Assembly: GCA_964602715.1 (NCBI GenBank)
Contig: CAZRSB010000002.1
Span: 1,309-65,308 of the forward strand
Direction: 5' to 3'
From: an uncultured Thermoplasmata archaeon
GTDB taxonomy: Archaea > Thermoplasmatota > Thermoplasmata > Halarchaeoplasmatales > Halarchaeoplasmataceae
DNA: 64,000 nucleotides
The position numbers and the translations under genes are program-made. A model generated the notes under the pieces. It was not told where the DNA came from. It saw nothing but the letters and a program-made list of their open reading frames with translations, and did not search any database. Within the stretch, counting starts at the first letter, position 1, and every line of letters begins with the position of its first letter. Of this stretch, positions 3,419-55,543 are shown piece after piece.

Positions 3419-6400
3419 ATGAATTGGAAAAAAATACTATCTTTAGCGATAGTATCGATTTTAGTATTCAGTGTACTAGTGAGTTTAGGCACACCCGTAA
3501 GTGCTGACGAGCCAGGTGAACCCGTAAATGAGGTGAGTTTTGACACCACATTAGAGATGTCAGAAGGCGCAGCTGCAGCTGCAGAGGGAAATGCACATAT
3601 CTTCATGCACGCTGTAGATGGAGATGTATATCAGGGACTTCCATCAGATATTCTAGCTAACCTAGATCACTGGGAAGTCTTTGGTGGATATAATCCATGG
3701 CTGATAAATCCTGCCCACGAAGGGAACGGTACATCGGAAGCATTGGCCGCAGTAGATGAAGGATGGATAGACGATACCGATGAGATCAATTACCTTGCGC
3801 ACAGTACAGAAGAAGGTTGGACGGTAAATCCGTTTGCCTGCAACGACTTCAGATTCTCTCTGCAGTACTTAGACAGAGTAGGAATGATAGAGGATCTTTT
3901 GGATGGGTTCGGTGAACCTAGATGGGGATCTTTCCTTTCTAGTTCCGACCTTTGGATGGAAGAATTCTATCCCGAGATAAACGAACCGTATGGACTAACC
4001 GGTGAAGGAAACGAAGATCTGATGTGGGATATGTTGGAGTATTCATTAGAAAATATGAAAGACAATATAGCCTTCGGTGAGTTCGAAGGAACTATAGGTG
4101 ATGAATGGACTTATACAAACCCAGATGGTGAAACACACGATATCGAGATAAGAATACCCGCAAGAGTTGAAGACTGGAGAATGGAAAAAGGATATTGGAC
4201 TGAAGATCTGATGCAAGAAATAGGATTTGAGACACACGTAGAGCCAGTTGATTTAGCTGGTGCTTTACCAATGATGCAGGGTGCATCCGACGAATACGAC
4301 AATCTAGAATGGCATGTATTCATGTCAGGTTGGATCTCTACTGCTATAACAGCTTATCATCATTGGGGCAATGCGCACATGTTCTATCCGTGGTATGCTA
4401 TGGAACCTGTTGGTCACGCGCAGCCAGAAGGACACTGGAGTTATGGTGAAGAGGCTTTAGATAACCCGATAGGACCATCTGACGAATTCAGAGAAGAATA
4501 TGAGTTGCCTGAGGAACGACCATTCGAAACTTTAGGAGATGCCAATGAAAGATCAGATGAGCTAACTGATGGTATTGTAGAAGATGAAGAGGAGTATATG
4601 GAAGATATGGTAAGATTAGAATCGGCTGGTGTACAAGAATCAGTGAATTTCTTCCTTGTATCGACGTTAGACTTCTATCCGTACAATCCAGAGATTATGG
4701 AAACCGCTGTTCCTGAAGCTGTAGCGGGATATGACACCTATTTTGGTCCAAGGACGATGAGAACTTATGAAGAACATGGTTGGGACGCAGGTGACTTCCA
4801 AGGCATCATAATGACCGGTGAAGCGCAACCATATATGGATCCATGGAATGTTTATGGAGGTTCTGACGACGTCTACGGTGAATATCAGAGAAGATTTTTG
4901 CGAGAATATTCAGATTGGGCTCATCCACAGACAGGAGAATACATGCAGTTAGGTAATTACTGGGAATCCGAACTTAGTGATGAAAACAGACTGCAGGTCT
5001 TCGAGAGACATGGTGATATAGACTCGTTATATGATGTGGAAGAAACCCATGATATACCAGAGGACGCTGTAAAATATGTGCCTGGCGAAGAGAGATGGAT
5101 GACTGCGGAAGAGATGTTAGAGCTCGATCCTGATGAATTTGAATTGGACTATTTAGAAGATCTAGAGACCGATCTGAAGGTAACGATGGATATACATGAT
5201 TACTATCAATACCATGCGCCAGATGGTTGGGAGCCTGCTGATTTCGATCTGAGTCATGTGATGTTCAACTGGGCTAGAGTTAGGGAACTTGGAGATGAGG
5301 AAGGACCATTCCACTCTGAAACAGCAGATCTCAACAGAGGTGCTTGGGATCAAACTTACGCGTTCGAATTTGATGAGGAGAAAGGAACTTTCACCATATA
5401 CGGTGATTATGAAATGCCAGTAGATAGATTGATAGGCAATTTCTTTTCAACTTTACCAGAAGTTCATCCAACGACTTACTGGGGATTCGACTACTTACAT
5501 GATTCTCCTGATTACGCTTATGAGGCAGGTGAATGGGATCAAATACACCAGCTGATCGACCGTCACTGTCAGGACATGCTTGATGAGCTTGATGAATGGT
5601 ATGACATGCTACCCCCGATGCTGGACGCTGACAATATACCGGAAGAATGGCAGGATGCTCTTGCCTGGGATCTAGATGAATGGCAGGAATCTATAGACTA
5701 TGTTGAAGCGTTTATTGATGAGAGAGAACATGCATTCCTAAGCATTGGACCATTTGAGTTGCTGTATTACGATGAAGACGATCACGAGATGGATATTCAG
5801 CGATTCGAACACTATGGATATCCACAGCCAGGTGAATCGGCCTATGATGTATTAGAAAGAGCAGGTATACCAGAGGACGAATGGGATGATCACGTTGTTG
5901 ATGGAATGGGCGACCATGTGTTTGAGTACGGTTACTGGACTGAACAATTCCACATTGAAGATGTCGACTTCCTTGATGTTTCAGCTCCAGCCAGTGTAGA
6001 CGCTGGATCTACGTTTAACATCGGAGCAGAAGCTACATGGGAGACCTTGTTCCCAGAACCAGGTCAGGCCAATCTAGAGCATATCTTCGATTATCGTTTC
6101 ACCATCAGAGATTCTGTGATGGGCGAAGAACTTCTAGTAATCGGTAGTGAAGATATTGATGCGGAACATTTAGACCTTAGTAGTACTTTTGACGCTTTTG
6201 ATGTACTCGCTGATCTACCGGCAGGAGAGTACCATATCCAGTTCGAGATACAGGTAGAAGAAGGAGATCCGTGGGCACATGAGGCCATACCTATAGTTTT
6301 CGACGCACCAGCAGCACAGATAGAAGGAGATATGGAAGTTGATCCAGCTGATGAGATAGAAGCAGGAGAAACGGCGACGATAACAGCAGACGTAGAAAAC

Positions 6401-8158
6401 ATTGTAGATGTAGATGCTGAACTTCAGATATGGATCGATGGATACGGAGTCGGAGAGATGATCCACACAGAAATGATATCACCGGGAGAACACACCATCG
6501 AAGTCGAGCACACATTTGAGGCTCCGGCTAGGATGAGTCAGATCCAGCTTCACGATGTCGGCGGCTTCCAGTTCGTAGATGAAGTTGAAGAATATGAGGT
6601 ATACGAAGTCTATGAATTAGAGACAGCTTCGACAGAAGGTGGAGAAGTAGTCGCACCTGGAGAAGGAACATTTGAAGAGAAGACAACCCTTGAGAGGGAT
6701 GATGACGCTGAAGATGATGACGCTGAAGAATATATAGTTGTCAATCCTGTGGTAGACTTAGCAGCAGAAGCAGAAGACGGCTATACGTTCTATGGATGGA
6801 CAGACGATGTAGATGGTGCTGATGTAGCACAGATAGCTGATCCAGCAGCCGCAGATACAGAGATCACGATGGTAGATGATCATTCTATTACAGCTGTATT
6901 CGAAGAAGAAAGACCAGACTTTGTGATAACGGACTTCGAAGTCGATCCAGTAGAAGGAGACATCCCACTTGAAGTGACTATAACCGCTGAGATAGAGAAC
7001 GTCGGCGACGCCGAGGGAACTATAGCTTTAGAAACTGATGATGTAGAGATCAACAGTTGGGCCCTCGCACCTGGTGAGGACGCAACAGTAGACGAAACAT
7101 ACACCTACGAAGAAGAAGGTGTGTATGAAGTTCTCCTCGGTGAAGAAAGGATAGAGGTAGTGGCAGGAGATATAGAGACCTTCGAGCTTACCATAAACGC
7201 AGAAGATGGCGGTACGACCGATCCTGAGCCGGATACGTACACTCATGAAGAAGGCGCCGAAGTCACGGTAAAAGCGATCCCGGACGAAGGTTATGTCTTC
7301 GACGAATGGACAGGCGACTACGAAGGAGAGGACGAAGAGATCACCGTAACCATGGACGATGACAAGGAGATAACGGCCCACTTCGAGGCTGAAGAGTATG
7401 AATTGACCATCGATATCGAAGGCGAAGGCACTACCGATCCTGAAGCAGGTACACATTCCTATGATTACGGAGAAGAAGTGACGGTAACAGCTGAAGCAGC
7501 TGATGGATGGGAATTCGTTGAATGGACAGGAGATTACGAAGGAGAAGACGAAGAGATCACGATCACGATGGACGAAGACAAAGAAGTAACAGCCGTATTC
7601 GAAGAGATACCGACCTATGAACTTACAGTGGAGATAGAAGGCGAAGGCGAAGTAGATATAGATCCAGATGAAGATGAATACGAAGAAGGAACAGATGTAA
7701 CATTGACAGCAGACGCAGACGAACATTGGTATTTTGCTGAGTGGACAGGAGATTACGAAGGAGAAGATGAAGAGATAACCATCACGATGGACGAAGATAA
7801 GGATATAACAGCTGTATTCGAAGAGAGCACTTACTCACTCACATTCGAAGTTATAGATGATGATGACGAAGATCCGATAGAAGATGCAGAGATAGTCCTA
7901 GAAAAAGATGGCGAAGAGTGGGAAGGAGAAACTGACGAAGACGGAATTTACACCTTTACAGATCTCGAACCAGGCAACTACGAGTGGGAAGTAAGCCACG
8001 ATGATTACGAGTCCGAAGACGGCGAAATAGACCTAACTGAAGATACCACGATAACGGTGGAACTAGAAGAGGACGTTGGAATACCAGGATTCACAGTAGC
8101 ACTGTTAGCAGTATCTGCATTCATAGCAGTTGCTATCTATTCCAAAAAGAAACAATAA
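3419..8158 (+). CDS. oppA: giant (1579 aa) OppA/DppA-like family-5 substrate-binding protein with C-terminal tandem InlB B-repeat-like domains and a PGF-CTERM anchor
   Basis: Signal peptide (ILSLAIVSILVFSVLVSLGTPVSA). About 130 aa in, TVNPFACNDFRFSLQYLDRVGMIEDLL matches the family-5 SBP signature (NPF...R.A...AIDR). It lies directly upstream of oppBCDF on the same strand. The C-terminal third carries 3 near-identical GYxF(D/V/A)EWTGDYEGEDEEITxTMDEDK modules. The protein ends GIPGFTVALLAVSAFIAVAIYSKKKQ (PGF-CTERM). Confidence 0.6.
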   Translation: MNWKKILSLAIVSILVFSVLVSLGTPVSADEPGEPVNEVSFDTTLEMSEGAAAAAEGNAHIFMHAVDGDVYQGLPSDILANLDHWEVFGGYNPWLINPAHEGNGTSEALAAVDEGWIDDTDEINYLAHSTEEGWTVNPFACNDFRFSLQYLDRVGMIEDLLDGFGEPRWGSFLSSSDLWMEEFYPEINEPYGLTGEGNEDLMWDMLEYSLENMKDNIAFGEFEGTIGDEWTYTNPDGETHDIEIRIPARVEDWRMEKGYWTEDLMQEIGFETHVEPVDLAGALPMMQGASDEYDNLEWHVFMSGWISTAITAYHHWGNAHMFYPWYAMEPVGHAQPEGHWSYGEEALDNPIGPSDEFREEYELPEERPFETLGDANERSDELTDGIVEDEEEYMEDMVRLESAGVQESVNFFLVSTLDFYPYNPEIMETAVPEAVAGYDTYFGPRTMRTYEEHGWDAGDFQGIIMTGEAQPYMDPWNVYGGSDDVYGEYQRRFLREYSDWAHPQTGEYMQLGNYWESELSDENRLQVFERHGDIDSLYDVEETHDIPEDAVKYVPGEERWMTAEEMLELDPDEFELDYLEDLETDLKVTMDIHDYYQYHAPDGWEPADFDLSHVMFNWARVRELGDEEGPFHSETADLNRGAWDQTYAFEFDEEKGTFTIYGDYEMPVDRLIGNFFSTLPEVHPTTYWGFDYLHDSPDYAYEAGEWDQIHQLIDRHCQDMLDELDEWYDMLPPMLDADNIPEEWQDALAWDLDEWQESIDYVEAFIDEREHAFLSIGPFELLYYDEDDHEMDIQRFEHYGYPQPGESAYDVLERAGIPEDEWDDHVVDGMGDHVFEYGYWTEQFHIEDVDFLDVSAPASVDAGSTFNIGAEATWETLFPEPGQANLEHIFDYRFTIRDSVMGEELLVIGSEDIDAEHLDLSSTFDAFDVLADLPAGEYHIQFEIQVEEGDPWAHEAIPIVFDAPAAQIEGDMEVDPADEIEAGETATITADVENIVDVDAELQIWIDGYGVGEMIHTEMISPGEHTIEVEHTFEAPARMSQIQLHDVGGFQFVDEVEEYEVYEVYELETASTEGGEVVAPGEGTFEEKTTLERDDDAEDDDAEEYIVVNPVVDLAAEAEDGYTFYGWTDDVDGADVAQIADPAAADTEITMVDDHSITAVFEEERPDFVITDFEVDPVEGDIPLEVTITAEIENVGDAEGTIALETDDVEINSWALAPGEDATVDETYTYEEEGVYEVLLGEERIEVVAGDIETFELTINAEDGGTTDPEPDTYTHEEGAEVTVKAIPDEGYVFDEWTGDYEGEDEEITVTMDDDKEITAHFEAEEYELTIDIEGEGTTDPEAGTHSYDYGEEVTVTAEAADGWEFVEWTGDYEGEDEEITITMDEDKEVTAVFEEIPTYELTVEIEGEGEVDIDPDEDEYEEGTDVTLTADADEHWYFAEWTGDYEGEDEEITITMDEDKDITAVFEESTYSLTFEVIDDDDEDPIEDAEIVLEKDGEEWEGETDEDGIYTFTDLEPGNYEWEVSHDDYESEDGEIDLTEDTTITVELEEDVGIPGFTVALLAVSAFIAVAIYSKKKQ
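7180..7830. repeat. three tandem ~216-219 bp near-identical DNA repeats encoding duplicated InlB B-repeat-like domains inside oppA
   Basis: Three DNA stretches around 7300-7380, 7520-7600 and 7740-7820 are roughly 85-90% identical to one another (gaatggacaggagattacgaaggagaagacgaagagatcac...). Confidence 0.6.
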
Positions 8159-18790: not shown

Positions 18791-21124
18791 TCAATTCGAT
18801 ATCAGCTCAATTATTTTTTCTGCTGTAGCTGACCCTATACCATCTACCTCTTGTAGCTCATCTTTATCAGCTTCGAAGACTTCTTTTACTGAGCCAAAAT
18901 GATCAAGCAATCTTTCTGCGAGAACACCCGAGACTGATGGTAAACCCTCCAAAATATATCTTTTTCTATCTCTAGCAGACATACTTTTCTTTTCTCTTCT
19001 TAAGGGTGTGATTTTCTTTTTATTTTCTTTTCTTTTTATCATTGCTTTAAGCAATGAAGCAGTTTCTTTAGAATCTTTAGTAGACAGAATCGGTATTCTA
19101 AAGTCACAGGCTAGTGAAGTGAGAGCACCATAGATAGCGTTGTCACCGATGTTTCTTTTATTGTAAAGGCCTTCACCTTCTAGTATGAGTACTGGCTGTA
19201 TATAATTATCTGATAAAGATTTTGCCTGAGAGAATAACCTTCCATCTGTTACGGATTCTAAAAAATCAGACACTTCTTTTCTCTCTATAGCAGTATCCTC
19301 TGATATCACGTAATCTCCAACTGATAGTTGATTTGTTTTTATTTTGATCCCCTCTCTTGCTAAATATTCTACCACACCACTGTTTTGTTCTCTAGTATCA
19401 ACCATTATTTCAAGGGATTCTTTTTTTTCTTCTTTTCCTTCCTTTGAAGACTTGTCTTCATAGTCCATAAGAGATCTTTGGTTTTTTTCATCGGGTTTAG
19501 ATATTTCTTCCTCATTTTTTCCCATATTTTTTATGTCCTTTTTACTTTTCTTTTCTACAATCTCATAGTCATCTTTCATTGGATCACCTACACTTATCTC
19601 GCTTCCTAGCTGATCTCTTAATTTCATCAAGTTTCGGTGCATCTTTTTTTCTTTGTTCTTGCTTGACCAATAGTAAGCCTCGTCACGGGTTCCTTTTGTT
19701 ATCAATATGACAACTTTACCTTTTCTTTTTCTAGCGGTCCTTCCTCTTCTCTGTATCGTTCTGATCTCTGAAGGAACGGGTTCATAAAAAACTACCATGT
19801 CAGTTGCCGGTATATCTAATCCTTCTTCTCCTACACTTGTGGCAACTAAAACGTTAAACCTACCTTTTTCAAACTCTTTGAGTGTTTCTATCTGATCGCT
19901 CTGTTTAAGCCCTTTGTCACCATCTTTGTTTCTCTGTCCTATGAATCTAACAGGATCAACGTGATCTAACTTAGCAAGTCTTTTAGCGACCTTTTTTGAT
20001 GTGTTTCTGTAATTTGTAAACACGATAATTCTGGAATTTTCATTTTTCTTCACTTGTTCTTTGACGACTTCAGCTACTTTATCGACCTTAGGATGCTCTT
20101 TTTCGATATTTTTTAGTGAAGCTAAAACGTCTTTGATAGTATTGGAATCCATTATTCGCTTAGATGCCTTTGATCCTCCGCGTGTTTCCGCTTCCTCTTT
20201 GATTTTTTCTAAATACTCTGAAAGACTTTCCATGCCTTGTGTTTCGGCCTGATCTACAGCGTGATCGAGTTTTATACAAGAGGCTATCAGGCTGGCGGCA
20301 TGATACAAGGATGATTTATTTGAAGAATGAATTTCTTTCTGTATCTCTTTTCTCACTTCAATAAGCTCTTTTCTAGTGACTCTATCCACTTTCTTTTTTT
20401 CTAAAAAACCAAAGTTTTGTATTTTCTCTATAAACTCATTTCTTAAATTTTTGAGGCGATCGACTATCTTTTTATGATCCTTTGGTAACTTTACATCTAT
20501 CCACTCTCTTTCCAACTCATTTGTATAATTAACGACGTCTGGATCAAATTTTGTTCTTATCTCTACATGTTTAAGTCCCAGCGTTTCACATACACTAAGA
20601 ATATTCTCTATTTCACTTCCTGGAGAAGCTGTAAGACCTAATGATAGTCCCTCGGTTTTTTGGTAAGTCTCTCCAATATATACATAAGAATAGTCTCCTA
20701 CTGCTCTATGAGCTTCATCGAATACAATCATCGATACATCTTCAAGATTTATCCTTTGGGCCATCAAGTCGTTCTTGATGACTTGAGGAGTAGAAACGAT
20801 TATATTTTTTTCATCCCAGAGTGTTCCTCTCTCTTTTGGCTGTACTTCTCCAGTGAAGACTTCAGGACTTTCTGTTTTTAACAAGTTCTCTATGTCTCGA
20901 GCATGTTGATTGACCAATGGTTTTGTTGGGGCTAAAAAAAGGATTTTCTTTTCAGGGTATCTCTCTAATTGTTTTGCAATTACCATAAATGCTATGATAG
21001 TTTTTCCCATTCCTGTAGGGAGTACGACCAATGTTGAGATCTCTTTAGCAATCTTTCCTATATTTATCTGATATTCTCTCTTTTCGATATCGTCAGTTTT
21101 TAAAATATCACTTTCAATTTTCAA
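18791..21124 (-). CDS. hef: Hef: helicase-associated endonuclease for fork-structured DNA (SF2 helicase + ERCC4 nuclease + HhH2)
   Basis: Helicase motifs LPTGMGKT, DEAH and QRRGRTAR. C-terminal ERCC4 nuclease (DTREQNS...GDYVIS...ERKEVSDF) followed by a tandem HhH (GLPSVSGVLAERLLDHFGSVKEV...VDGIGSATAEKIIE). Confidence 0.85.
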   Translation of the reverse strand: MKIESDILKTDDIEKREYQINIGKIAKEISTLVVLPTGMGKTIIAFMVIAKQLERYPEKKILFLAPTKPLVNQHARDIENLLKTESPEVFTGEVQPKERGTLWDEKNIIVSTPQVIKNDLMAQRINLEDVSMIVFDEAHRAVGDYSYVYIGETYQKTEGLSLGLTASPGSEIENILSVCETLGLKHVEIRTKFDPDVVNYTNELEREWIDVKLPKDHKKIVDRLKNLRNEFIEKIQNFGFLEKKKVDRVTRKELIEVRKEIQKEIHSSNKSSLYHAASLIASCIKLDHAVDQAETQGMESLSEYLEKIKEEAETRGGSKASKRIMDSNTIKDVLASLKNIEKEHPKVDKVAEVVKEQVKKNENSRIIVFTNYRNTSKKVAKRLAKLDHVDPVRFIGQRNKDGDKGLKQSDQIETLKEFEKGRFNVLVATSVGEEGLDIPATDMVVFYEPVPSEIRTIQRRGRTARKRKGKVVILITKGTRDEAYYWSSKNKEKKMHRNLMKLRDQLGSEISVGDPMKDDYEIVEKKSKKDIKNMGKNEEEISKPDEKNQRSLMDYEDKSSKEGKEEKKESLEIMVDTREQNSGVVEYLAREGIKIKTNQLSVGDYVISEDTAIERKEVSDFLESVTDGRLFSQAKSLSDNYIQPVLILEGEGLYNKRNIGDNAIYGALTSLACDFRIPILSTKDSKETASLLKAMIKRKENKKKITPLRREKKSMSARDRKRYILEGLPSVSGVLAERLLDHFGSVKEVFEADKDELQEVDGIGSATAEKIIELISN

Positions 21125-22562: not shown

Positions 22563-23402
22563 ATGACAGAAATCATCAGAACGGTTTTAAAAGCTAAAAA
22601 AGAGATCGAACCGAGTTCCATTATACTTTTTACCCAGTCAGAGGAATTGATGGAGAAGTTGTCTGATAACCTCGTTGACGAGGATCTGATAATCTTCACT
22701 AAGAAGCCCGTGATATCCTCTTTTTTGGGCAAATCGGGAGTAAGGATAAGAAACTTGAAGAATTCTCCAGGCACCGGACTTGAAGTTTTAAATCAAGTCA
22801 GAGATTTGGTATTAACTTGTTCGGCCGAAGGTCTAATCGAGACAAATGAGAATGTAATGATAGTGATCTCAACTGATATAGATACAATACTTTCTTTTGA
22901 AATGCAGGATATCGGCATAATGAATATAAAAGATCAAGTCGAGGATAGAGTAAGAATAGAAGTTATAGAATCAGCATTCAATTTGGGTACGAGGATAGTG
23001 AGAGACGGAAAAGAAGGTTTTCCAGCAGGTGCTCTTTTTATCATCGGAGATATGAATAATGTGCTGAATCATACCACAGAAGCGGTAAAGAATCCTCTAG
23101 AAGGCTGTGCTGAAGAAGAATACAATGTTAAGTATGAAGATAACTGGAATACGGTTAAAGAGTTCTCTATGATCGACGGTGCTTTGATACTAGATAGGTA
23201 TGGTAATCCAGTTGCAGCGGGGAGGTATGTGATGTTTGGGGATGGATTTGAGAGTGAATTAGAAGAAGGTCTTGGGGGTCGCCATCTAGCAGCCTCCTAC
23301 ATAAGTGAGAAGACAAAGGCTATCGCTATGGTCATCTCGTCTGAAGGTACAATACGCATATATAAAAACGGCAACAATATATATGAGGTAGATGTGGTTT
23401 GA
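22563..23402 (+). CDS. dacZ: diadenylate cyclase (archaeal DacZ type; c-di-AMP synthase)
   Basis: The C-terminal domain has the DAC-domain motifs DGALILD and GGRHLAAS (the canonical DGA and G-T/G-RH-x-AA motifs). Confidence 0.8.
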   Translation: MTEIIRTVLKAKKEIEPSSIILFTQSEELMEKLSDNLVDEDLIIFTKKPVISSFLGKSGVRIRNLKNSPGTGLEVLNQVRDLVLTCSAEGLIETNENVMIVISTDIDTILSFEMQDIGIMNIKDQVEDRVRIEVIESAFNLGTRIVRDGKEGFPAGALFIIGDMNNVLNHTTEAVKNPLEGCAEEEYNVKYEDNWNTVKEFSMIDGALILDRYGNPVAAGRYVMFGDGFESELEEGLGGRHLAASYISEKTKAIAMVISSEGTIRIYKNGNNIYEVDVV

Positions 23403-23478
23403 CTTTAATTTTTTAAAAACGGGTATAAAACAGATGGGGTAAAAAATAAATAAAAAGACTTGATCCTGCTTTGATAGG

Positions 23479-23949
23479 ATGAGAAAGATCAATAGAAAAT
23501 TGACCGATGAAGGAGCTTTAGAAGGGTTGCCCCTTTACATGATAATACTGATAATAATAGCCGGTGTTGGTACAGCAGTGATCGGAGGATGGCTCATGAG
23601 TACACAGAGTACTGAATTGGATAATATAGAAGTTCAGGATCACAATAATAATGACATAGATATGATAGATAGTACTGCTGGAGGTGTGATCACTGTCTAT
23701 GTAACTGCATACGATCAAAATGGAGAGGCGTTAGAAGATGTTAGAGTCTCTTTTCAAGGATGTGGTACAGGAGATATGGATGGATCAGTAAATTATACAG
23801 ATGCGGACGGCGAAATGGATTTCACTGTTGAAAGAGATGACCTACGATTACCCGATCATGAACCATACGGTGTAATAGAGATCACAGCAGAATACGATGA
23901 GGGCGAATTAAATACACCAGTAACAAGAGAGATCACCGTGACTGATTGA
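23479..23949 (+). CDS. small N-terminally anchored acidic protein. Its TM segment is homologous to those of the four surface proteins at 51.8-55.5 kb; possibly pilin-like
   Basis: N-terminus RKINRKLTDEGALEG-LPLYMIILIIIAGVGTAVIGGWLM aligns with KG-IPVYLMVLVLISGTVLGAGIWFL of 54920..55543 (P at +2, small-xxx-small, G-W). Its stop overlaps the start of the next gene (the ATPase). Confidence 0.4.
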   Translation: MRKINRKLTDEGALEGLPLYMIILIIIAGVGTAVIGGWLMSTQSTELDNIEVQDHNNNDIDMIDSTAGGVITVYVTAYDQNGEALEDVRVSFQGCGTGDMDGSVNYTDADGEMDFTVERDDLRLPDHEPYGVIEITAEYDEGELNTPVTREITVTD

Positions 23950-25313
23950 AAAGTAAAACACTTCGCTTTTATTCATTTGAAAACAGAAGTGATACCCTGC
24001 TAGAAACTAAGGAGATATTTGGAAGATCTGAAGATCTTTCGGAAGAATTGGGAACCAAAGGTTGTTGTTATATCGGCAAGAATGTTTCCTATCCAGGAGG
24101 AAAGTATGAGGAAACTGGGAAGGCATATTTAGATATAGTTTCACCCCATTGTATGTTAGTTTTAGGAAAGAGAGGGACGGGTAAATCTTACACTTTAGGT
24201 GTGATAGCGGAAGGTTTCGCCAAACTAAAACAAAAGTATTCAGATAATATCTCTTTGATATTAGTAGATACGATGAGTGTTTTTCACAGTTTGAAAAAGT
24301 GCAATTCAAATGAAAAAGAAATAAAACTGATGGATGATTTCGATATCGAGCCAGAAAATTTTTCTAAAAAGCTAAATATACTAATCCCTGAGATCGCTAT
24401 CAAAAAGGCAAATGAAGATTCTGCAGAGCTGCACTATGATGAAGTCCTAAAGATACCTTTAGAGAAGGTTGCCGTCCATGAATGGTTAGAACTTTTTGAT
24501 CTTGATTTAACTAGTGAGATCGGGACACTATTGAGTCAGATAATTACAGGATTGAAAGAAAGGGGGCGATTTTCATTTGATGATCTATATGAACAAATTG
24601 AAAAGACTGACCACGGCAAAAGAGAAACAAGGTCTAAACTGATTAACCTCTTTAAAACCATAGAGAAAAAGAATTTATTTTCTGAGGAGGGGACTAAAAC
24701 CTTTGTTCGGCCAGGTGATATAACAGTTCTTGATATATCCTATTTGGGTAGAATAGGAGATTTTGATCTAAGGAGATTAGTAGTTTCAATATTCGCGAGA
24801 GATCAGATGGCTAAAAGGACGCTTTATACTACTATAGAGATGCAAGCACAGGCGGATCTGCTAGAAAAAGGAAATGAAAAAAGTATGCTGGACAAACATC
24901 CTATAGTTTACATGTTGATAGATGAAGCACACCTATTTTTACCCAAAAATAAGAAAACTCTGTCCAGTTCTCCACTGATAGACTGGATCAAACTAGGAAG
25001 ACATCCTGGTCTTTCTTTGATAATGGCAACTCAAGAACCTTCTGCTTTACATCCAACTGCCATAAGACAGTCAGACATGATAATAGCTCATAACATGACC
25101 TCTAACGATGATCTAAATGCTCTCAAACTCGCGAAACAATCCTATATGAAAAGGGGACTAGATGAAGTGGTAGCAGATATGGAATTTAAAAGGGGATTGG
25201 CTATGATCTTTGATGATAGAAGGAGAGAATTACAGCTCTGTAAGATAAGACCAAGGCATACATTGCACACGGGTGTTGATGCTTCAGCTTTAACTCCAGA
25301 GGAGAAGTATTAG
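23946..25313 (+). CDS. HerA/FtsK-superfamily P-loop ATPase (DUF87-like)
   Basis: Walker A in LVLGKRGTGKSYTLGVIAEG. Walker B / DEAH-like in IVYMLIDEAHLFLP. Downstream, a conserved Q (SLIMATQEP). About 455 aa. Architecture resembles HerA / VirB4 / CedB-type ATPases. Confidence 0.5.
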   Translation: MKSKTLRFYSFENRSDTLLETKEIFGRSEDLSEELGTKGCCYIGKNVSYPGGKYEETGKAYLDIVSPHCMLVLGKRGTGKSYTLGVIAEGFAKLKQKYSDNISLILVDTMSVFHSLKKCNSNEKEIKLMDDFDIEPENFSKKLNILIPEIAIKKANEDSAELHYDEVLKIPLEKVAVHEWLELFDLDLTSEIGTLLSQIITGLKERGRFSFDDLYEQIEKTDHGKRETRSKLINLFKTIEKKNLFSEEGTKTFVRPGDITVLDISYLGRIGDFDLRRLVVSIFARDQMAKRTLYTTIEMQAQADLLEKGNEKSMLDKHPIVYMLIDEAHLFLPKNKKTLSSSPLIDWIKLGRHPGLSLIMATQEPSALHPTAIRQSDMIIAHNMTSNDDLNALKLAKQSYMKRGLDEVVADMEFKRGLAMIFDDRRRELQLCKIRPRHTLHTGVDASALTPEEKY

Positions 25314-25317
25314 CGTT

Positions 25318-27657
25318 TCATTCTCCCATTTTCTTTCCTAGAGTCTCCTTCCAGACTTTTCGTATTTTATCCACTTCTAGCTCTATCAATTTGTTATCAT
25401 CCGATTTGATTTCGAGAGATTGGCCTTGAACTTCACCTATTTGTTTAACTGGTACAGAAAAAACATCCTCGAATTTATCTTTTTTATCTTGTTCAACTTC
25501 GACCAACCATCTAGTGTTGCTTTCAGAGTATAAGTACTTATCATCTCTCAATTCACTTTTAATCTTTATTTCGGCTCCTAGATCCCCAGCGAGGCACATC
25601 TCTGATATCGCAACACCGATTCCTCCTAAAGATACATCATGACAGCTTTTGATAAGGTCTCTTGAATGGGCTTCCAACATTTCTTCTATACTTTTTTCAA
25701 GTCTTTCAATGTCTACCTTGGGTATATTGCCGCTTTTACCTTCAGTCAGTTTATAATATTCAGAGCCACCAAGTTCATCTTTGGTATCTCCAACAAGATA
25801 GATCAGATTTCCCTCCTCTTTTAAGTCCATAGTAACAGCTTTCCTGACGTCTTCTATCAATCCACAAGCAAGTATTGAAGGCGTGGGTTTTACCGCCCCT
25901 GCAGGTGTTTCATTATAGAAGCTCACATTTCCCGAAACAAATGGAATAGTTAGAGAACGTGCAACAGTTTCGAGTCCGTTAGCGACGCGTTCAAAATCAC
26001 CAAGCCGCTCAGGTTTTTCTGGATTACCAAAATTTAAACAATCAGCAAAAGAGTGAGGTCTCGCACCAACTGCAACTAGATTCCTTATCGCTTCGTCTAG
26101 TGTAGACATAGCACCAGCTTTTGGATCAAGGGAAGTAAAAGAGGGGATCACGTCAGTAGTCACAGCTATTCCTTTATATGATTCTTCCAGAGGTTTAATG
26201 ATAGAGGCATCGCCTGGCCCTTGTTTTCCTAATACTCCCTGTAACGGTTTTACTACGGTGTTTTCTCTCACCTCATGATCGTACTGTCTTATCACCCATT
26301 CTTTACTGTTTATGTTATCTCTCTTAAGCATTTGGAGAAGAGTATCATTATGATCCTTTGGTTCCTTTGGTTCTTTTTCGTCTATATCAAAAGTATGATC
26401 TACGTGTTCAGTAGGTCTGCAGTATTCCGGACCTCCAGTTTGAAATTCTAGATCAAGATCCATTATTTTTTCGTCTTCATAGTAAACTTTGATCTTTTTT
26501 TCGTCTATAACTTTGCCTATCCTCTTTGCTTCTACATCCCATTTTTTACATATATGCATAACCTCTTCTACATCTTCTTCCTTTACAGCGAACATCATCC
26601 TTTCTTGACTCTCAGATACCCAGATCTCCCATGGAGCCATGTCTTCTTCTTTCAAAGGAACTTTATCTATCTGTACCTCAGCCCCATATCCTCCGTCTAG
26701 AGACATTTCACCCGCTACGCAGGAAAGTCCTCCACCTCCAAAATCCTTCATACCTTGAAGCAGACCTTTCTTATTCAATTCTAAACTAGTATGGATCAAA
26801 GGTTCTTTAGTTATGGGATCTCCAAGTTGTACCGCTCCGATATCTTCCTCTTCAGAGTCTTCGTGCAGTTCATCAGAAGCAAAGGTGACACCGTGGATAC
26901 CATCTCTGCCTGTTTTCCCACCTGCCATTATGAAGACATCTCCTGGCTCCTTCACTCTACTTCTTATCAACTCCTCTTTTCTGGCAATTCCTATACAGCC
27001 AACATTGACAAGACAATTTGCAGTATAAGATTCATCAAAATAGACCAAACCAGTGAGTGTTGGAATCCCTAACCTGTTCCCGTAGTCACTGATCCCATGC
27101 ACCACTCCATCGAAAAGATATCTTGGATGTTTTGTTCCTGCCGGTAGATCATCGTAATCTATATCTAGAGGACCGAAAAACAACGGATCAACAAAAGCGA
27201 GAGGTTGAGCTCCCATGCAGGTCACATCTCTTACGATGCCTCCTATCCCTGTTGCGGCTCCACCATAAGGTTCGATAGCTGAAGGATGATTGTGAGATTC
27301 TAGGGCAACAACATAAGCGTGATCGTCATCGAATTCTACGACTCCTGCATCCTCCTCAACCACGAAGATGTTTTGAGGAGCTTCTATATCAAAAACAGTA
27401 TCCTTCAGTATTGGTTTTGAAGATTTATAGCAGCAGTGTTCTGACCAAGCCTGACCTATAGCTTCTAGTTCCAGGTCAGTAGGATTTCTACTTAGCTTTT
27501 CAAAATGTTCTTTCACCATCTTCATTTCTTCTAAGCTGAGACCTATTCCGCTCTCTTGACTTATCTCCTCTAGGTCCTTATCAGAAGCTTCGAGCAGGTT
27601 TACTTCGTGAAGTTCAAACGGAACGTCTTTTTTAATATAATGTTCCATAAAGATCAC
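25318..27657 (-). CDS. purL: phosphoribosylformylglycinamidine (FGAM) synthase II
   Basis: 779 aa; two AIR-synthase-related domains; purS lies immediately upstream. Confidence 0.9.
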   Translation of the reverse strand: MIFMEHYIKKDVPFELHEVNLLEASDKDLEEISQESGIGLSLEEMKMVKEHFEKLSRNPTDLELEAIGQAWSEHCCYKSSKPILKDTVFDIEAPQNIFVVEEDAGVVEFDDDHAYVVALESHNHPSAIEPYGGAATGIGGIVRDVTCMGAQPLAFVDPLFFGPLDIDYDDLPAGTKHPRYLFDGVVHGISDYGNRLGIPTLTGLVYFDESYTANCLVNVGCIGIARKEELIRSRVKEPGDVFIMAGGKTGRDGIHGVTFASDELHEDSEEEDIGAVQLGDPITKEPLIHTSLELNKKGLLQGMKDFGGGGLSCVAGEMSLDGGYGAEVQIDKVPLKEEDMAPWEIWVSESQERMMFAVKEEDVEEVMHICKKWDVEAKRIGKVIDEKKIKVYYEDEKIMDLDLEFQTGGPEYCRPTEHVDHTFDIDEKEPKEPKDHNDTLLQMLKRDNINSKEWVIRQYDHEVRENTVVKPLQGVLGKQGPGDASIIKPLEESYKGIAVTTDVIPSFTSLDPKAGAMSTLDEAIRNLVAVGARPHSFADCLNFGNPEKPERLGDFERVANGLETVARSLTIPFVSGNVSFYNETPAGAVKPTPSILACGLIEDVRKAVTMDLKEEGNLIYLVGDTKDELGGSEYYKLTEGKSGNIPKVDIERLEKSIEEMLEAHSRDLIKSCHDVSLGGIGVAISEMCLAGDLGAEIKIKSELRDDKYLYSESNTRWLVEVEQDKKDKFEDVFSVPVKQIGEVQGQSLEIKSDDNKLIELEVDKIRKVWKETLGKKMGE

Positions 27658-50226: not shown

Positions 50227-51798
50227 TTAGGTATCTTCCTTTTCAGATTCATCTTCTAGCCTTTCTTCAACGCTTTCCCTTACCTTTTCACCGAATCCAG
50301 CAAATTTATCTCCTAAAGGAGAATCTTTTTTATCTTTATCTTCGCTCTCTTTTTTATCTGTTTTATCTTCCTCTTGTCCTTCTTTGTCTTCTTCGTTGGA
50401 CTCGGTCGAGCTTTTTTCTCCATCCTTTGAGGTGATAGATTCTTCTTCTGATTTGCTTTTTTCAGACTCAGAAGTTTCTTCTTTTTCATCGCCGCTTGCA
50501 TCATCTTCTTCTTCCTTATCAGATGAAGACTCTTCTATTTCTTTTTCTTCTGCTTCTTCATCTTTTGATTTTGTCAGTGTGGGCAATTCTGTTATCTCTT
50601 CTTTCTTTTCAAAAGAAGGAGATCCTATTTTTGGTATCCCAACCCCACAGTTGGGACAATTTTCTGTGGCAAAAGACATTTCATTTTTACATTCTGGACA
50701 AACTTTTCTTTTCTCTTTTTTAAAGGGCGAAACCCGTTTATCTATTATAAGTAGGGTTATGTGAGATATAGAGAGAAAAATGAGTAGGCTCAATATCAAA
50801 TAAGTCAAAATGTCGGGAGAAGCATCGTACGCATGATAGATATGAAGGGATAGTGACCCTCCGATCAAAATATTCATGAGGAAGGATGGTAAGAGTAATC
50901 TTTTTTTGATGTAAACTGCTTCACTTGGAGAAAAGTCATAATATTTCAATGATAAGACAGTCAGAAGTAAGATAGCCAGGAAAGAGAGAGTGAGTGATGA
51001 TAGCCAAGAGAGTTCCACAAGATATGCTGGAGAAAGATAAAACAAGACGGGATGAGCATAGACTGAAGGATAGCCTAAAAGCACGACAAGAAGTTCTAAG
51101 GAAGTAAAAATCAGTAGGAAAATTGGGATAGCAAAGGACAAAAACAAAAACAAGCCTTTGAATAAGTTGAACCTTGTGATCGTCTTCCGTTCGACACGAT
51201 CTTTTTCGACCACGATATCTTTTTGCTGTTTACTTTTCACTTCTTTTTCTAGAGGTTTTTCCTCCTCAGGACTTTCCTTTTTTCTCTTATCTTCTAATAT
51301 CTCTTCGATCGTTTTATCCTCATCGTATTCTTTTCTTTTTTCTTTCCATTCGAATTCCCCGACATCTTTAGTTAGATCTTCAACACTGATTTCTTCCGAT
51401 TTGCTATCCTCGATTTCTTCTTCTTTTTTTGGTTCCTCTTTTTGCTCGTCAGCCACATACACTTTTTTTGCATTTTCTAGGATACTGTCTGAGGTATCAA
51501 AACTGAAACGATAGATTCCAGCGAGTTCTCTCATCCCTCCATCAACGATTTCTTTTGGGCTTTTGAACCCATTATCGTACAGTATCTCGGCTTCTTTTTT
51601 GCTGATACCTGGGATATTAAGTAATCTTTTCAATGCTATTTCTTTTTCTTCACTTATATCTTCATCGAGAGAGACCTTATCCTTTTTCAAAGATTCTCCA
51701 CATCTAGGACATCTCATGGATTTTGATGAAGTGGTGAATCCACAACTTGAGCATTCGATTATATTATCAGAGATCATTTTTCCCACCACCCGACCCAT
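50227..51798 (-). CDS. membrane protein with N-terminal zinc ribbon and HhH motif, 4-5 TM helices, a second zinc ribbon and a long acidic Ser/Glu/Lys-rich tail
   Basis: CSSCGF...CPRCGE zinc ribbon; LLNIPGISKKEAEILYDNGFKSPKEIV is a classic helix-hairpin-helix motif; TM helices at aa ~200-330; CPECKNE...CPNCG zinc ribbon; then low-complexity E/K/S/D tail. Paralogous to 55758..56624. Confidence 0.45.
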   Translation of the reverse strand: MGRVVGKMISDNIIECSSCGFTTSSKSMRCPRCGESLKKDKVSLDEDISEEKEIALKRLLNIPGISKKEAEILYDNGFKSPKEIVDGGMRELAGIYRFSFDTSDSILENAKKVYVADEQKEEPKKEEEIEDSKSEEISVEDLTKDVGEFEWKEKRKEYDEDKTIEEILEDKRKKESPEEEKPLEKEVKSKQQKDIVVEKDRVERKTITRFNLFKGLFLFLSFAIPIFLLIFTSLELLVVLLGYPSVYAHPVLFYLSPAYLVELSWLSSLTLSFLAILLLTVLSLKYYDFSPSEAVYIKKRLLLPSFLMNILIGGSLSLHIYHAYDASPDILTYLILSLLIFLSISHITLLIIDKRVSPFKKEKRKVCPECKNEMSFATENCPNCGVGIPKIGSPSFEKKEEITELPTLTKSKDEEAEEKEIEESSSDKEEEDDASGDEKEETSESEKSKSEEESITSKDGEKSSTESNEEDKEGQEEDKTDKKESEDKDKKDSPLGDKFAGFGEKVRESVEERLEDESEKEDT

Positions 51799-52615: not shown

Positions 52616-54280
52616 TCATATATTTGATTTTCGAACCATTAAAAATTTCTCTAAAGATATCAAAGGTCGAATTAGTTTTATAGAGATATCTTCATCTTCA
52701 GTCCCTTCATAAAGGTCTAAATTGTTTAGATTATCGTTCATCTCTAATGAACGTTGGTGAGCAGTTACTGGATTTTCGTCTAAGACATCTTGTGCCCTTA
52801 ATTGGATTGTCCTGTTTATCGCTTGTAATATAGGATAACCATCTTCAACAGCATTATCGTGGTCTTCATCAACAGTTTCCCAAATATCATCGAAATCAAA
52901 GCCGTCCATGTTATCTTTAGCCTCAGTCCCAATCATCTCATCTGTTGTCAAACCTTCTCCACCAGCAGAATCCTCTTTTTCACTTGTTTCCGTATCCCAA
53001 TATGAATCGATCACCCGACCGGCATTCTGACCTTGCCCTTCTGTGTTACCTACTAATCCACCCACTTTTTCCCCACCTTCAACATATCCAGTAGAGTACG
53101 AATTGCGAATTTCTCCTCTCCAATCAACACAGCCAGCGAGACCTCCGACTCTTTCAGCATTTTCTGCATAGACATTTCCCAGTGCGTAAGAATCAATCAC
53201 ATTCCCTTTTTGAGAAAATCCTACCAAACCGCCAAATTTATCTCCGCCGTTTTCTGAAATATCGTTTACAGTGACATTGGCAAAACTTCTCCTTATTTCA
53301 GGGTTATCTCTCCCACCTGGAGTTTCTCTAAAACTGTTGTGAGAACCTACTAGGCCGCCAACAGCACCTGAGCCACTGACTGACCCATTATATACCGAAG
53401 AATTTTGGATTATGGTATTTTCACTTCCTGTCGTTCTGCCAACTAGAGCACCGACACCTCTATCTCCTTCAATAGTAACATTTCTAAGATTTACATTTTC
53501 TATCCTAGTATCTTCATCTCTACTTTCTTCAAAACCGATATGACCAAAAAGAGCGGTATTGCTAAGATAGGGTCTATTGATATGAAGGTTTGTTATATTG
53601 TGTCCGTTTCCGTCAAAATTGCCGTGAAATTTTACGGTATCATCTCCTATGGGTAAAAAACCTCGTCCTTCATCCCAAAATTCAGTTTCTTTTGCATCGA
53701 TGTCTTCACATAATTTGTAATAGGCTCCAGGTTCATTTATGATAGATTGAAGTCCAGTTATATTTACTATACAATATGGATTTTCCTTCGTTCCATCGCC
53801 TGTTTCAGTTACATTTTCAAGGTCTTGCGTGATAAAATAGGTTCTAGCTCCGGTAACCTCTATCTTCCTTTCTTCAGTCTCGTTGATGGCGACTGTTTTG
53901 TATTCGTATAAGGTATTATTTTCCAGACCATCGTCTTCTGTGATGGTCGTATTGAACCTTCTAGTTTCATCGAATTGAATCTTCTGACTGTCGGTTTCGT
54001 TCCAATCCTCTGGATCTTCTTCCCCGAAATCATATTCTCTCCATCTAAATGAAACGTTAGCTTCGTCTATCCTTCTCATATGTCTCAGGTTTCCGTTCAA
54101 TGTAGCACTCGGATTGCTGACATTCGAGGCAGCTTCAGTATCCACTATGAGTGCTTCTTCATCATAATCTATAGGTTGTTCTACCCTTGAGATCCAGATG
54201 CCTGCCCCATAGACTACACTAACCAAAAGTACGACGATAGCCAGATAGGCATAAGTTTTTTTTCTTTTTTTACTCTTCAT
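52616..54280 (-). CDS. large anchored surface protein with GLUG-motif / right-handed beta-helix repeats (adhesin-like) (P3)
   Basis: N-terminus KKT-YAYLAIVVLLVSVVYGAGIWISRVEQPIDYDEE. The central region has iterated VGGLVG...N.G.I.NSY..G.V repeats (GALVGRTTG, AVGGLVGSHNS, FGGLVGFSQKG, VGGLAGC, VGGLVGNTEG) typical of GLUG / beta-helix adhesin modules. Has N-glycosylation sequons. Confidence 0.5.
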   Translation of the reverse strand: MKSKKRKKTYAYLAIVVLLVSVVYGAGIWISRVEQPIDYDEEALIVDTEAASNVSNPSATLNGNLRHMRRIDEANVSFRWREYDFGEEDPEDWNETDSQKIQFDETRRFNTTITEDDGLENNTLYEYKTVAINETEERKIEVTGARTYFITQDLENVTETGDGTKENPYCIVNITGLQSIINEPGAYYKLCEDIDAKETEFWDEGRGFLPIGDDTVKFHGNFDGNGHNITNLHINRPYLSNTALFGHIGFEESRDEDTRIENVNLRNVTIEGDRGVGALVGRTTGSENTIIQNSSVYNGSVSGSGAVGGLVGSHNSFRETPGGRDNPEIRRSFANVTVNDISENGGDKFGGLVGFSQKGNVIDSYALGNVYAENAERVGGLAGCVDWRGEIRNSYSTGYVEGGEKVGGLVGNTEGQGQNAGRVIDSYWDTETSEKEDSAGGEGLTTDEMIGTEAKDNMDGFDFDDIWETVDEDHDNAVEDGYPILQAINRTIQLRAQDVLDENPVTAHQRSLEMNDNLNNLDLYEGTEDEDISIKLIRPLISLEKFLMVRKSNI

Positions 54281-54919: not shown

Positions 54920-55543
54920 TTACTCGACGTCAGTTACGTCTTCAAAGTACCATTCTATCACGTATCCGTCTACATCATACGGAGATTCATTTTCCTCCTC
55001 GTTTCTGTTAGTGTATACTACTGTTCTCGTTTCATCATCACCACCTGTCAACTCAATTTCGATTGGTTCATCTAGAGATTCTCGCTGTACTGAATAATGA
55101 GTTTCCTCATATTTTACTCGCCAATCGTATTCACTATCCCAAGACCATTCTTCGATATCTTCTGGACCTACCTCTCCTTCTAATACTACAAATGCAATCT
55201 CATCTGTCTCTGAGTCGCCGTCATCATAAGCTGTGACATCGATCTCTATTGTCACATCATCCTTTCCATCTTCTGGATTATCAATTTCGATGTATTGGTG
55301 GAAAGATTCGTATGTCAAGTCTGCTTCATGTTCATGTTCATGTGAATCTCTTAGATGAAATTCACCGTCTCCATAGGTAGTTCCATCATCATCTGTTTCA
55401 CTATATAGGGTTACTAATACAGGCTCATCATAATCCACCGGCACATCCACAGTCAAGAACCATATTCCTGCACCTAGCACTGTTCCTGAGATAAGCACCA
55501 ACACCATCAGATATACTGGGATTCCCTTCAGTTTGTTTTTCAT
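54920..55543 (-). CDS. N-terminally anchored acidic surface protein (P1), same family
   Basis: N-terminus KLKG-IPVYLMVLVLISGTVLGAGIWFLTVDVPVDYDEP; His/Asp-rich segment (HLRDSHEHEHEAD); paralogous core. Confidence 0.4.
   Translation of the reverse strand: MKNKLKGIPVYLMVLVLISGTVLGAGIWFLTVDVPVDYDEPVLVTLYSETDDDGTTYGDGEFHLRDSHEHEHEADLTYESFHQYIEIDNPEDGKDDVTIEIDVTAYDDGDSETDEIAFVVLEGEVGPEDIEEWSWDSEYDWRVKYEETHYSVQRESLDEPIEIELTGGDDETRTVVYTNRNEEENESPYDVDGYVIEWYFEDVTDVE

Follow-up and report, generated by a model that had tools for sequence, protein, structure and literature searches.

A conserved pair of genes, encoding a small membrane protein and an ATPase, was analysed in a 64,000-nucleotide (nt) stretch of contig CAZRSB010000002.1 (assembly GCA_964602715.1) from an uncultured Thermoplasmata archaeon of the Halarchaeoplasmataceae; the whole of this stretch is called the window below. 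The best reading is that the two genes form one operon, which encodes a membrane partner of 156 amino acids (aa) and a cytoplasmic ring-motor ATPase of the HerA clade. We tentatively favour, without regarding it as probable, the interpretation that Thermoplasmatota and DPANN archaea have an undescribed type-IV-filament-like envelope machine, of which the pair is an orphan and duplicated module. The organisms compared are all uncultured and represented by metagenome-assembled genomes (MAGs).

Relatives of the ATPase were sought in 185,579 species-level genomes and were present in 309 stretches; 78 loci were fetched. Open reading frames (ORFs) in the fetched loci were our own maximal-ORF calls, clustered by BLAST, and three groups emerged. 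Type A ATPases are 58-71% identical to that of the window and belong to halophilic Thermoplasmatota, type B ATPases (~50% identity) to Thermoplasmata and Methanomassiliicoccales, and type C ATPases (32-37% identity) to DPANN. In the genome scan, the nearest relatives of the window ATPase came from salt-lake and soda-lake MAGs. Types A and B occur together in at least three MAGs.

The original prediction had noted the membrane-anchored partner and proposed that the co-occurrence of the two genes be examined elsewhere. The pairing is real: the small protein is encoded directly upstream of the ATPase in 38 of the 38 type-A loci with upstream sequence, and the two are inseparable in this clade. 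One type-A subclade keeps the order Hef, RNase Z, DacZ, pair and PurL, while in the other (e.g. L001, L017-L032) the pair is kept and Hef, RNase Z and DacZ are absent. In the Hef-less subclade, one to four tandem cytoplasmic proteins of ~175 aa with weak similarity to DUF2378 are encoded directly after the ATPase (for example L017, 2323-3992; L018, 6290-7394; L063, 557-2889). They are absent from the window, and copies are also found near type-B ATPases in L049 and L051.

Both ORFs exist as originally described, and so do the Walker motifs: the ATPase ORF (23946..25313, + strand; 455 aa from a TTG) carries GKRGTGKSYTLG and LIDEAHLF, which are invariant in 12 homologues. Its assignment as HerA/FtsK-like also stands. 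Pfam DUF87 matches with 46.2 bits (cut-off 23.2) and HerA_C with 34.2 bits (cut-off 22), and an AlphaFold2 (AF2) model built with 12 homologues (mean predicted local distance difference test score, pLDDT, 79; predicted TM-score, pTM, 0.82) found HerA-type proteins in all of its top 50 Foldseek matches, with no VirB4 or TrwK among these. The best structural matches were 9x1m (HerA-NurA of Thermococcus kodakarensis; E 2e-18) and 4d2i (HerA of Sulfolobus solfataricus; TM-score 0.60). Matches in the PDB by sequence were HerA-type defence and repair proteins and the B204 packaging ATPase of Sulfolobus turreted icosahedral virus, all of them weak. A search for transmembrane (TM) segments, another check that had been proposed, found none by hydropathy (19-residue maximum 0.9). 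With the start codon corrected as described below, only ~55 residues precede the P-loop, and AF2 gives 3-4 short strands there. The ATPase thus belongs to the HerA clade, lacks TM segments and has both Walker motifs intact. Across Thermoplasmatota the family shows 50-71% identity, with the Walker A Lys, the Walker B Asp-Glu and several Arg invariant, and it is under strong purifying selection. Three Cys/His residues before the P-loop are also invariant: C40, H68 and C69 (455-aa numbering; 24063-24065 and 24147-24152), which stand in G-C-C-Y and P-H-C. Together these residues might make up a metal site.

The ATPase nevertheless scores below the cut-off of every curated NCBIfam model for HerA, CedB/CedD and anti-phage HerA that was tested. 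The values were 20.2 and 25.7 bits for the HerA equivalogs NF040819 and NF040937 (cut-offs 970 and 800), 30.1 and 32.9 bits for the anti-phage HerA equivalogs (cut-offs 800 and 850), 21.5 bits for CedB (cut-off 700) and 22.8 bits for CedD (cut-off 600).

The N-terminus of the 156-aa protein is as quoted in the original prediction. Hydropathy indicates one TM segment, preceded by a cytoplasmic part of only ~15 residues, and the AF2 model (pLDDT 74.6) has a helix at residues 19-39 followed by eight strands over residues 47-155 that form a beta-sandwich. Pfam Big_1 gives a weak, sub-threshold match to residues 71-119 (25 bits). The ectodomain is very acidic, with an isoelectric point of 4.05, which fits a hypersaline habitat. 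In 38 orthologues the anchor GALEGLPLY[LM]IILVVIAG[VI]GTA.I.GWM.SAQSTEL is near-invariant and the ectodomain varies, which therefore points to a specific interaction in or at the membrane.

Table 1. Coordinates of the gene pair, its sequence elements and its neighbours in the window.
Feature	Position	Strand	Remarks
Single-pass membrane protein gene	23479..23949	+	156 aa; basic cytoplasmic tail, one TM helix, acidic immunoglobulin (Ig)-like ectodomain
Juxtamembrane and TM anchor	23515..23619	+	A13-L47, ALEGLPLYMIILIIIAGVGTAVIGGWLMSTQSTEL; near-invariant in a 38-sequence alignment
Extracellular Ig-like beta-sandwich	23617..23943	+	From AF2 strands; varies more than the anchor
Formal 5' extension of the ATPase ORF	23946..23996	+	Probably untranslated; unconserved; stop codons there in other loci
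GTGAT, Shine-Dalgarno-like	23989..23993	+	3 nt upstream of the probable CTG start
Probable true coding sequence of the soluble HerA-clade P-loop ATPase	23997..25313	+	438 aa, CTG start
Walker A, GKRGTGKS	24165..24188	+	Read from the translation; invariant across 12 homologues
Walker B, LIDEAH	24915..24932	+	Read from the translation; D326, E327 and H329 invariant across 12 homologues
Hef	18791..21124	-	Helicase, XPF-type nuclease and helix-hairpin-helix (HhH); 2.8 kb upstream of the pair, divergent
RNase Z			Between Hef and the DacZ-like gene (window neighbour list)
DacZ-like DAC-domain protein	22563..23402	+	Directly upstream of the pair
PurL	25318..27657	convergent to the pair	Followed by PurS and LysE

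The formal start of the ATPase ORF, TTG at 23946, overlaps the TGA of the small gene (23947-23949), and from this 4-nt stop/start overlap the original prediction had deduced translational coupling. The most likely start of the ATPase, however, is CTG 23997, a weak start codon ~47 nt after the small gene, because the extension is unconserved, the model has low pLDDT there and the codon usage at the conserved position in 37 type-A loci points to it. The 17 codons that follow TTG 23946 are not conserved; homologues are 438-439 aa long and start at residue ~18 with LLETKEIFGR, tblastn matches to the 455-aa ORF start at residues 13-18, and residues 1-19 of the AF2 model have a pLDDT of 31-36. The Gly in the GR motif is invariant, and the codon eight positions ahead of it is CTG in 25 of the 37 type-A loci, TTG in 10 and a different one in two (CTG/TTG loci listed: L001, L007-L009, L011-L018, L022-L023, L025, L027-L028, L032-L033, L050, L052, L054, L057-L058). 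No ATG, GTG or TTG lies between the upstream in-frame stop and the GR motif in 20 of these 37, and the ~40 residues that would be lost with the next canonical start codon are conserved at the protein level. In most type-A loci the 16 nt that precede the conserved start position contain GAGG or GTGAT, the latter of which we take to be complementary to the 3' end of archaeal 16S rRNA. Overlap-based coupling is therefore doubtful, and the 4-nt overlap is probably an artefact of ORF calling. Spacers between the small gene and the ATPase gene measure ~10-50 nt across loci, and the two are presumably co-transcribed. A fusion of the two ORFs by read-through or frameshifting was also considered and was rejected on topology, since an ATPase joined to the C-terminus of the small protein would lie outside the cell; the conserved CTG/TTG codon and the Shine-Dalgarno-like site account for the data. 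Public gene calls of 399-400 aa miss ~40 conserved N-terminal residues, and the 455-aa call in the window is over-extended. About two-thirds of the ATPase genes in the type-A clade thus appear to start with CTG, with the result that gene callers either cut ~40 conserved residues or over-extend.

The link to type IV pilus (T4P) machinery comes in part from the type-B relatives. In the type-B operon a ~205-aa Cys-rich protein, which in some cases is fused with the gene after it, is followed by a T2SSE ATPase, a ~690-aa platform protein with 9-10 TM segments and, last, the HerA-like ATPase. The T2SSE and platform genes lie immediately upstream of the ATPase on the same strand in 13 of 16 type-B loci, and the overlap or gap between platform and ATPase is mostly 0-13 nt. 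The type-B T2SSE protein matches TadA best (127 bits) and then FlaI (110 bits), and Pfam T2SSF is matched by 12 of the 13 platforms. In L037, L040 and L044 the type-B ATPase has neighbours with the same EG[LIFM]P anchor as the small protein of the window: in L037 an orthologue of the small protein directly follows the ATPase, accompanied by a second, EGIP-anchored protein, and L040 has two same-anchor proteins. The general idea of a translocation module, which the original prediction had put forward, gains support from these TadA/FlaI-like and T2SSF operons that end in paralogous ATPases and are flanked by same-anchor proteins.

These loci also bear on the alternative that the two genes have no functional relation and stay adjacent only through synteny inherited within one clade. 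The type-A loci do come from a single halophilic Thermoplasmatota lineage with shared Hef, RNase Z, DacZ and PurL synteny. The surrounding synteny, however, breaks between the subclades while the pair never separates, and the small-protein orthologue after the type-B ATPase in L037 and the two same-anchor proteins in L040 would be unexpected, which makes this explanation very improbable.

Another alternative, and the main one, is that the ATPase is a protein dislocase, which would extract or insert EG[LIFM]P-anchored proteins in a VirB4-like manner, so that the cargo would be protein. VirB4 belongs to the FtsK-HerA superfamily and works alongside the T2SSE-family ATPase VirB11. Consistent with such a role, the ATPase regularly adjoins single-pass proteins with a specific and highly conserved anchor, and giant proteins of ~1,700-1,800 aa are encoded upstream of the type-B operons in L004, L044 and L045. 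An EG[LIFM]P-type anchor is visible only in the L044 protein, which starts with LEGMP; the N-termini of the other two are cut by the end of the locus, and the L004 protein carries a CARDB domain. Against it, the 50 best Foldseek matches are of HerA type with no VirB4 or TrwK, the VirB4-lineage models CedB and CedD match only weakly, and the fusions seen in relatives involve DNA-binding domains rather than membrane- or protein-handling ones. A dislocase seems unlikely on this balance.

In the type-C loci of DPANN the association is with pilins. Of 22 loci, 12 encode class-III pilins no more than 6 kb from the ATPase, in ~4 independent arrangements, and in L062, L082, L071 and L061 the pilins lie directly upstream of it; one pilin from a type-C locus passes TIGR02537. 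Nanohaloarchaea have a tight same-strand array that encodes a 4-TM protein, the ATPase, a 3-TM protein, Hef, DUF460 and an archaeosortase-like protein (L080, 9330-16429, from M3_22, CP046106; L060-L070, L076, L079-L082), followed in most of them by a class-III pilin. L080 differs in that the gene after that for the archaeosortase-like protein is on the opposite strand and encodes a 6-TM protein; this was suspected to be an A24 prepilin peptidase, and no NCBIfam model matched it.

The adjacency of Hef raises the possibility that the ATPase is a cytoplasmic, HerA-like helicase of DNA repair or processing, perhaps acting with Hef, and that the membrane protein only shares its transcript or tethers it loosely. 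The Hef gene is found 2.8 kb upstream of the pair in the window, likewise upstream in 16 syntenic type-A loci, and directly downstream of the ATPase in Nanohaloarchaea; its proximity could be coincidence or reflect a link to repair. The HerA fold, the SAP and winged helix-turn-helix (wHTH) fusions of relatives and the inteins in the P-loop of many homologues also speak for a repair role. Hef is, however, absent from the other type-A subclade (L001, L017-L032) and, Hef apart, there is no NurA-like or other nuclease among the annotated conserved neighbour clusters. Scores of 20-33 bits against HerA equivalog cut-offs of 800-970 and the short stretch of ~55 residues before the P-loop also set the protein apart from repair HerA, and neither the absolute linkage to a membrane protein nor the type-B operons would be explained. 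We consider this role, too, to be unlikely.

If the pair is instead a module of an envelope machine, as we tentatively favour, the ATPase would hexamerise under the membrane, to which the platform machinery, the conserved cytoplasmic face of the anchor or both might recruit it, and would thread a polymer using ATP. DNA appears to be the likeliest cargo, an assignment that we hold loosely, because the solved HerA-clade enzymes are double-stranded DNA (dsDNA) translocases, distant relatives are fused to SAP and wHTH domains, and the ATPase gene adjoins Hef and DUF460 in Nanohaloarchaea. The whole system would then be a candidate apparatus for DNA uptake or exchange, functionally comparable to the Ced system and competence pseudopili and a member of neither. 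The complete scheme, in which a TadA/FlaI-like and T2SSF motor, a HerA-clade dsDNA translocase and EG[LIFM]P proteins make up an envelope machine for DNA uptake or cell-to-cell DNA exchange and the pair in the window is a duplicated module with low expression from its CTG, seems doubtful as a whole.

Several observations weigh against an envelope machine. DNA as the cargo is a family prior and not an observation, the hexamer and its docking at the membrane are postulated, and the pair encodes no DNA-binding protein, channel or nuclease. Neither a T2SSE ATPase nor a platform protein nor a prepilin peptidase was found among the profiled proteins of the window, in which not every large ORF was scanned, so that the T4P link is drawn from paralogues of ~50% identity and from distant DPANN relatives. 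Much of the locus synteny, that of DPANN included, is inherited within lineages and is thus not independent evidence. The small protein, moreover, shows no detectable homology to classical archaeal pilins. It has no match at E<=1 to TIGR02537, Pilin_N or Class_IIIsignal (as a control, one DPANN pilin passes TIGR02537), hhalign of its family with nine classical DPANN pilins gives a probability of 6.9%, and Foldseek retrieves generic Ig, macroglobulin, intimin and Big-type sandwiches, with no archaeal pilin among the matches. In the sequence ..DEGALEG|LPLY.. a Gly, the candidate cleavage position, abuts the helix, but the residue before it is Glu and not Lys or Arg. At an alternative site, x-G|ALEG, the -2 residue is variable and is K or R in some orthologues. 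Identity as a classical archaeal pilin was accordingly rejected as unsupported by the family models and hhalign. Of the original term pilin-like, only the architecture, an N-terminal helix followed by a beta-sandwich, is retained; the absence of a pilin-model match, the low hhalign probability and the generic Ig fold tell against the rest.

A membrane partner could also suit an FtsK-like translocase for chromosome clearing or segregation, held at the division site by the small membrane protein in a lineage that lacks FtsK. The ATPase is a motor of the FtsK-HerA superfamily with a membrane partner, and its gene is a vertically inherited, highly conserved core gene. Yet no division genes are linked to it except SepF, ~5.5 kb away in L001, the partner exposes an extracellular Ig domain and only ~15 residues to the cytoplasm, and paralogues lie in pilus-type operons and not in division clusters. 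Such a function is quite improbable.

The same can be said of a part in defence against phages or plasmids, in which the HerA-like ATPase would act with a membrane sensor. Among PADLOC models, which carry no curated cut-off, mad8 matches best (65.8 bits), with positions 7-311 of its 314 and thus essentially the full length aligned; many defence HerA models come next. A short HerA-like ATPase of 30% identity is encoded on a plasmid of Haloplanus sp. HW8-1 (L083; NZ_CP098519, 114950-117258), where the gene overlaps one for a 380-aa hypothetical protein. A BREX system ATP-binding domain protein is encoded two genes before it, and a PD-(D/E)XK nuclease and a helicase after it, which gives this distant branch a defence-like context. 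It was the only homologue found in the plasmid search, and none was found in the phage collection. A defence role of the copy in the window is nevertheless unlikely, contrary to one suggestion of the original prediction: it has no adjacent effector (Sir2, nuclease or DUF4297), scores 30-33 bits against cut-offs of 800-850, and occupies a fixed position between DacZ and PurL in many genomes, in syntenic core genome and not in an island.

Of the known systems, the HerA-NurA complexes of DNA end resection and double-strand-break repair (9x1m, 4d2i) share with the window ATPase a RecA-like core with helical insertions (TM-score 0.57-0.60), the DUF87 and HerA_C matches and the Walker A and B motifs. 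Identity is only 13-18%, however, and HerA carries a full HAS-barrel, whereas ~55 residues precede the P-loop here and the partner is a membrane protein. NurA, which often adjoins HerA together with Mre11 and Rad50, was not seen among the window neighbours or the annotated conserved neighbour clusters of 80 loci, no NurA HMM having been run. Membership in HerA-NurA was rejected on scores of 20-26 bits against cut-offs of 800-970, and membership in Sir2-HerA and DUF4297-HerA on scores of 30.1 and 32.9 bits against 800 and 850. With MADS the full-length mad8 profile match points to the same short, HAS-less HerA-like architecture; the identified neighbours in the window are housekeeping genes at a core-genome position, unlike MADS, whose other components were not searched for.

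In Crenarchaeota, the Ced and Ted systems import DNA and comprise the ATPases CedB and CedD together with CedA, CedA1 and CedA2; Ced is encoded on the chromosome and acts in concert with type IV (Ups) pili (PMC9905601, PMC11868833). Like Ced and Ted, the pair in the window combines an ATPase of the FtsK-HerA superfamily with a small membrane protein. Unlike them, the ATPase has neither an N-terminal TM segment nor a VirB4-like domain, the pair has no polytopic CedA-like partner, and the small protein has an Ig ectodomain and is not a VirB2-like pilin. Ced membership was rejected, with 21.5 and 22.8 bits against cut-offs of 700 and 600 and no TM segment.

The motors of archaella and T4P (ArlI/FlaI, ArlJ/FlaJ and ArlH/FlaH) resemble the type-B operons in that the latter add a RecA-fold ATPase to a FlaI/TadA-like ATPase and T2SSF, and ArlH is a precedent for an accessory ATPase. 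The accessory ATPase is of the HerA clade here, though, and not KaiC-like, and the window has only the ATPase and its membrane partner. Type IV secretion systems (VirB4 and VirB11) likewise bring T2SSE-family and FtsK-HerA-superfamily ATPases together with small membrane proteins, but they have no T2SSF platform and the window ATPase is nearest to HerA and not to VirB4. In a 2016 census of archaeal T4P loci, HerA appears only in the name of a superfamily, and no component of this kind is listed. More generally, the literature searched, including a 'dark matter' survey, described neither this pairing nor a HerA-like ATPase in archaeal T4P loci, which is not proof of novelty; the original prediction had not recognised the pairing either.

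According to the original prediction, the 156-aa protein is the fifth member of a conserved-anchor family, the other four being surface proteins encoded in a cluster at 51.8-55.5 kb of the window. This holds, weakly, for one of them only. A hidden Markov model (HMM) of the N-terminus of the small family matches only the 207-aa protein (54920..55543) among 193 window ORFs (11.4 bits, E 0.0017), and the other three cluster members score below zero. In 3,866 ORFs from 80 loci the best unrelated ORF reached 7.4 bits with this anchor HMM, and the only comparable or higher scores came from proteins adjoining type-B ATPases; the pattern [EKRQ]G[LIMFV]P retrieves only the same small set of proteins. 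BLASTP aligns the 156-aa and 207-aa proteins with E 6e-5 over 33 residues, and hhalign of the small family with the cluster group gives 34% probability over 25 TM columns. Beyond the helix, neither method found any similarity between the 156-aa protein and the cluster proteins: the latter all four share the post-anchor motif IW...V.xDYDE, where the former instead has GGWLMSTQSTELDNIEV and a Big_1-like domain. The relationship would at best be a distant one to a single member, at the level of the anchor.

That the ATPase energises this cluster, as had also been suggested, finds no support in genomic context. Within 10 kb of the ATPase, none of the fetched loci encodes homologues of the anchored cluster proteins; the sole phmmer match near ATPase loci is a large L024 protein, similar to the 554-aa member with GLUG motifs. 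Homologues of the 207-aa protein sit in similar paralogous clusters elsewhere, with no ATPase or T4P genes near them.

The cluster itself has some further features. The 554-aa member (52616-54280, -) carries the GLUG motif, and the cluster is flanked by two HhH_5 membrane proteins of 523 aa (50227-51798, -) and 288 aa (55758-56624, +). The former has Pfam zinc-ribbon matches and the latter C-terminal Cys pairs discerned by eye; HhH_5 is a DNA-binding-type motif, found here on membrane proteins beside anchored surface proteins. Elsewhere in the window, a 1,579-aa surface protein (3419-8158, +) has four InlB B-repeat (Flg_new_2) domains and a CarboxypepD_reg domain.

Directly upstream of the pair, the DAC-domain protein resembles the haloarchaeal diadenylate cyclase DacZ with 90 bits, far under the cut-off of 430 bits. 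Its gene has this position in 16 loci and is possibly, though not necessarily, transcribed together with the pair. An A/T-rich stretch at 23409-23458 (TTTTTTAAAAA, GGTATAAAA, AAATAAATAAAAAG), 20-70 nt before the ATG of the small gene, could be a TATA-type promoter for a short-leader or leaderless transcript, to judge from the sequence alone.

A profile search of 1.84 billion representative proteins placed the ATPase in a wider family of 241 clusters at E<=1e-30 and 697 at E<=1e-10. Many members contain one or two inteins (Intein_splicing and LAGLIDADG), located in the P-loop (profile position ~60) or near Walker B (~313), with examples among P0146, P0150, P0144, P0170, P0232 and P0148; the family is thus a frequent intein host, and inteins in the P-loop are a typical feature of ATPases that act in replication and repair. 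In P0136 the ATPase is duplicated in tandem. In more distant relatives, a recurrent architecture of 1,200-1,470 aa joins the HerA-like ATPase to DUF835 (P0226, P0231, P0216, P0222, P0212, P0208; ~210 bits). SAP is present in three of these six relatives and a TrmB-type wHTH in one; both are DNA-binding domains, and therefore link the ATPase family to DNA binding.

To our knowledge, a motor that moves DNA across the membrane has been identified in no archaeon outside the crenarchaeal Ced and Ted systems. The conserved HerA-type ATPase, with its place in type-IV-pilus-like operons, offers a concrete and testable candidate for this missing motor, one that is tied to a dedicated membrane-anchor motif across Thermoplasmatota and lies beside pilins and the repair genes Hef and DUF460 in host-dependent DPANN archaea. 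A DNA-exchange machine of this kind, if real, would be the euryarchaeal and DPANN counterpart of Ced and the competence pseudopili. If the cargo is protein, the ATPase would still be a new kind of accessory ATPase in the archaeal type-IV-filament repertoire.

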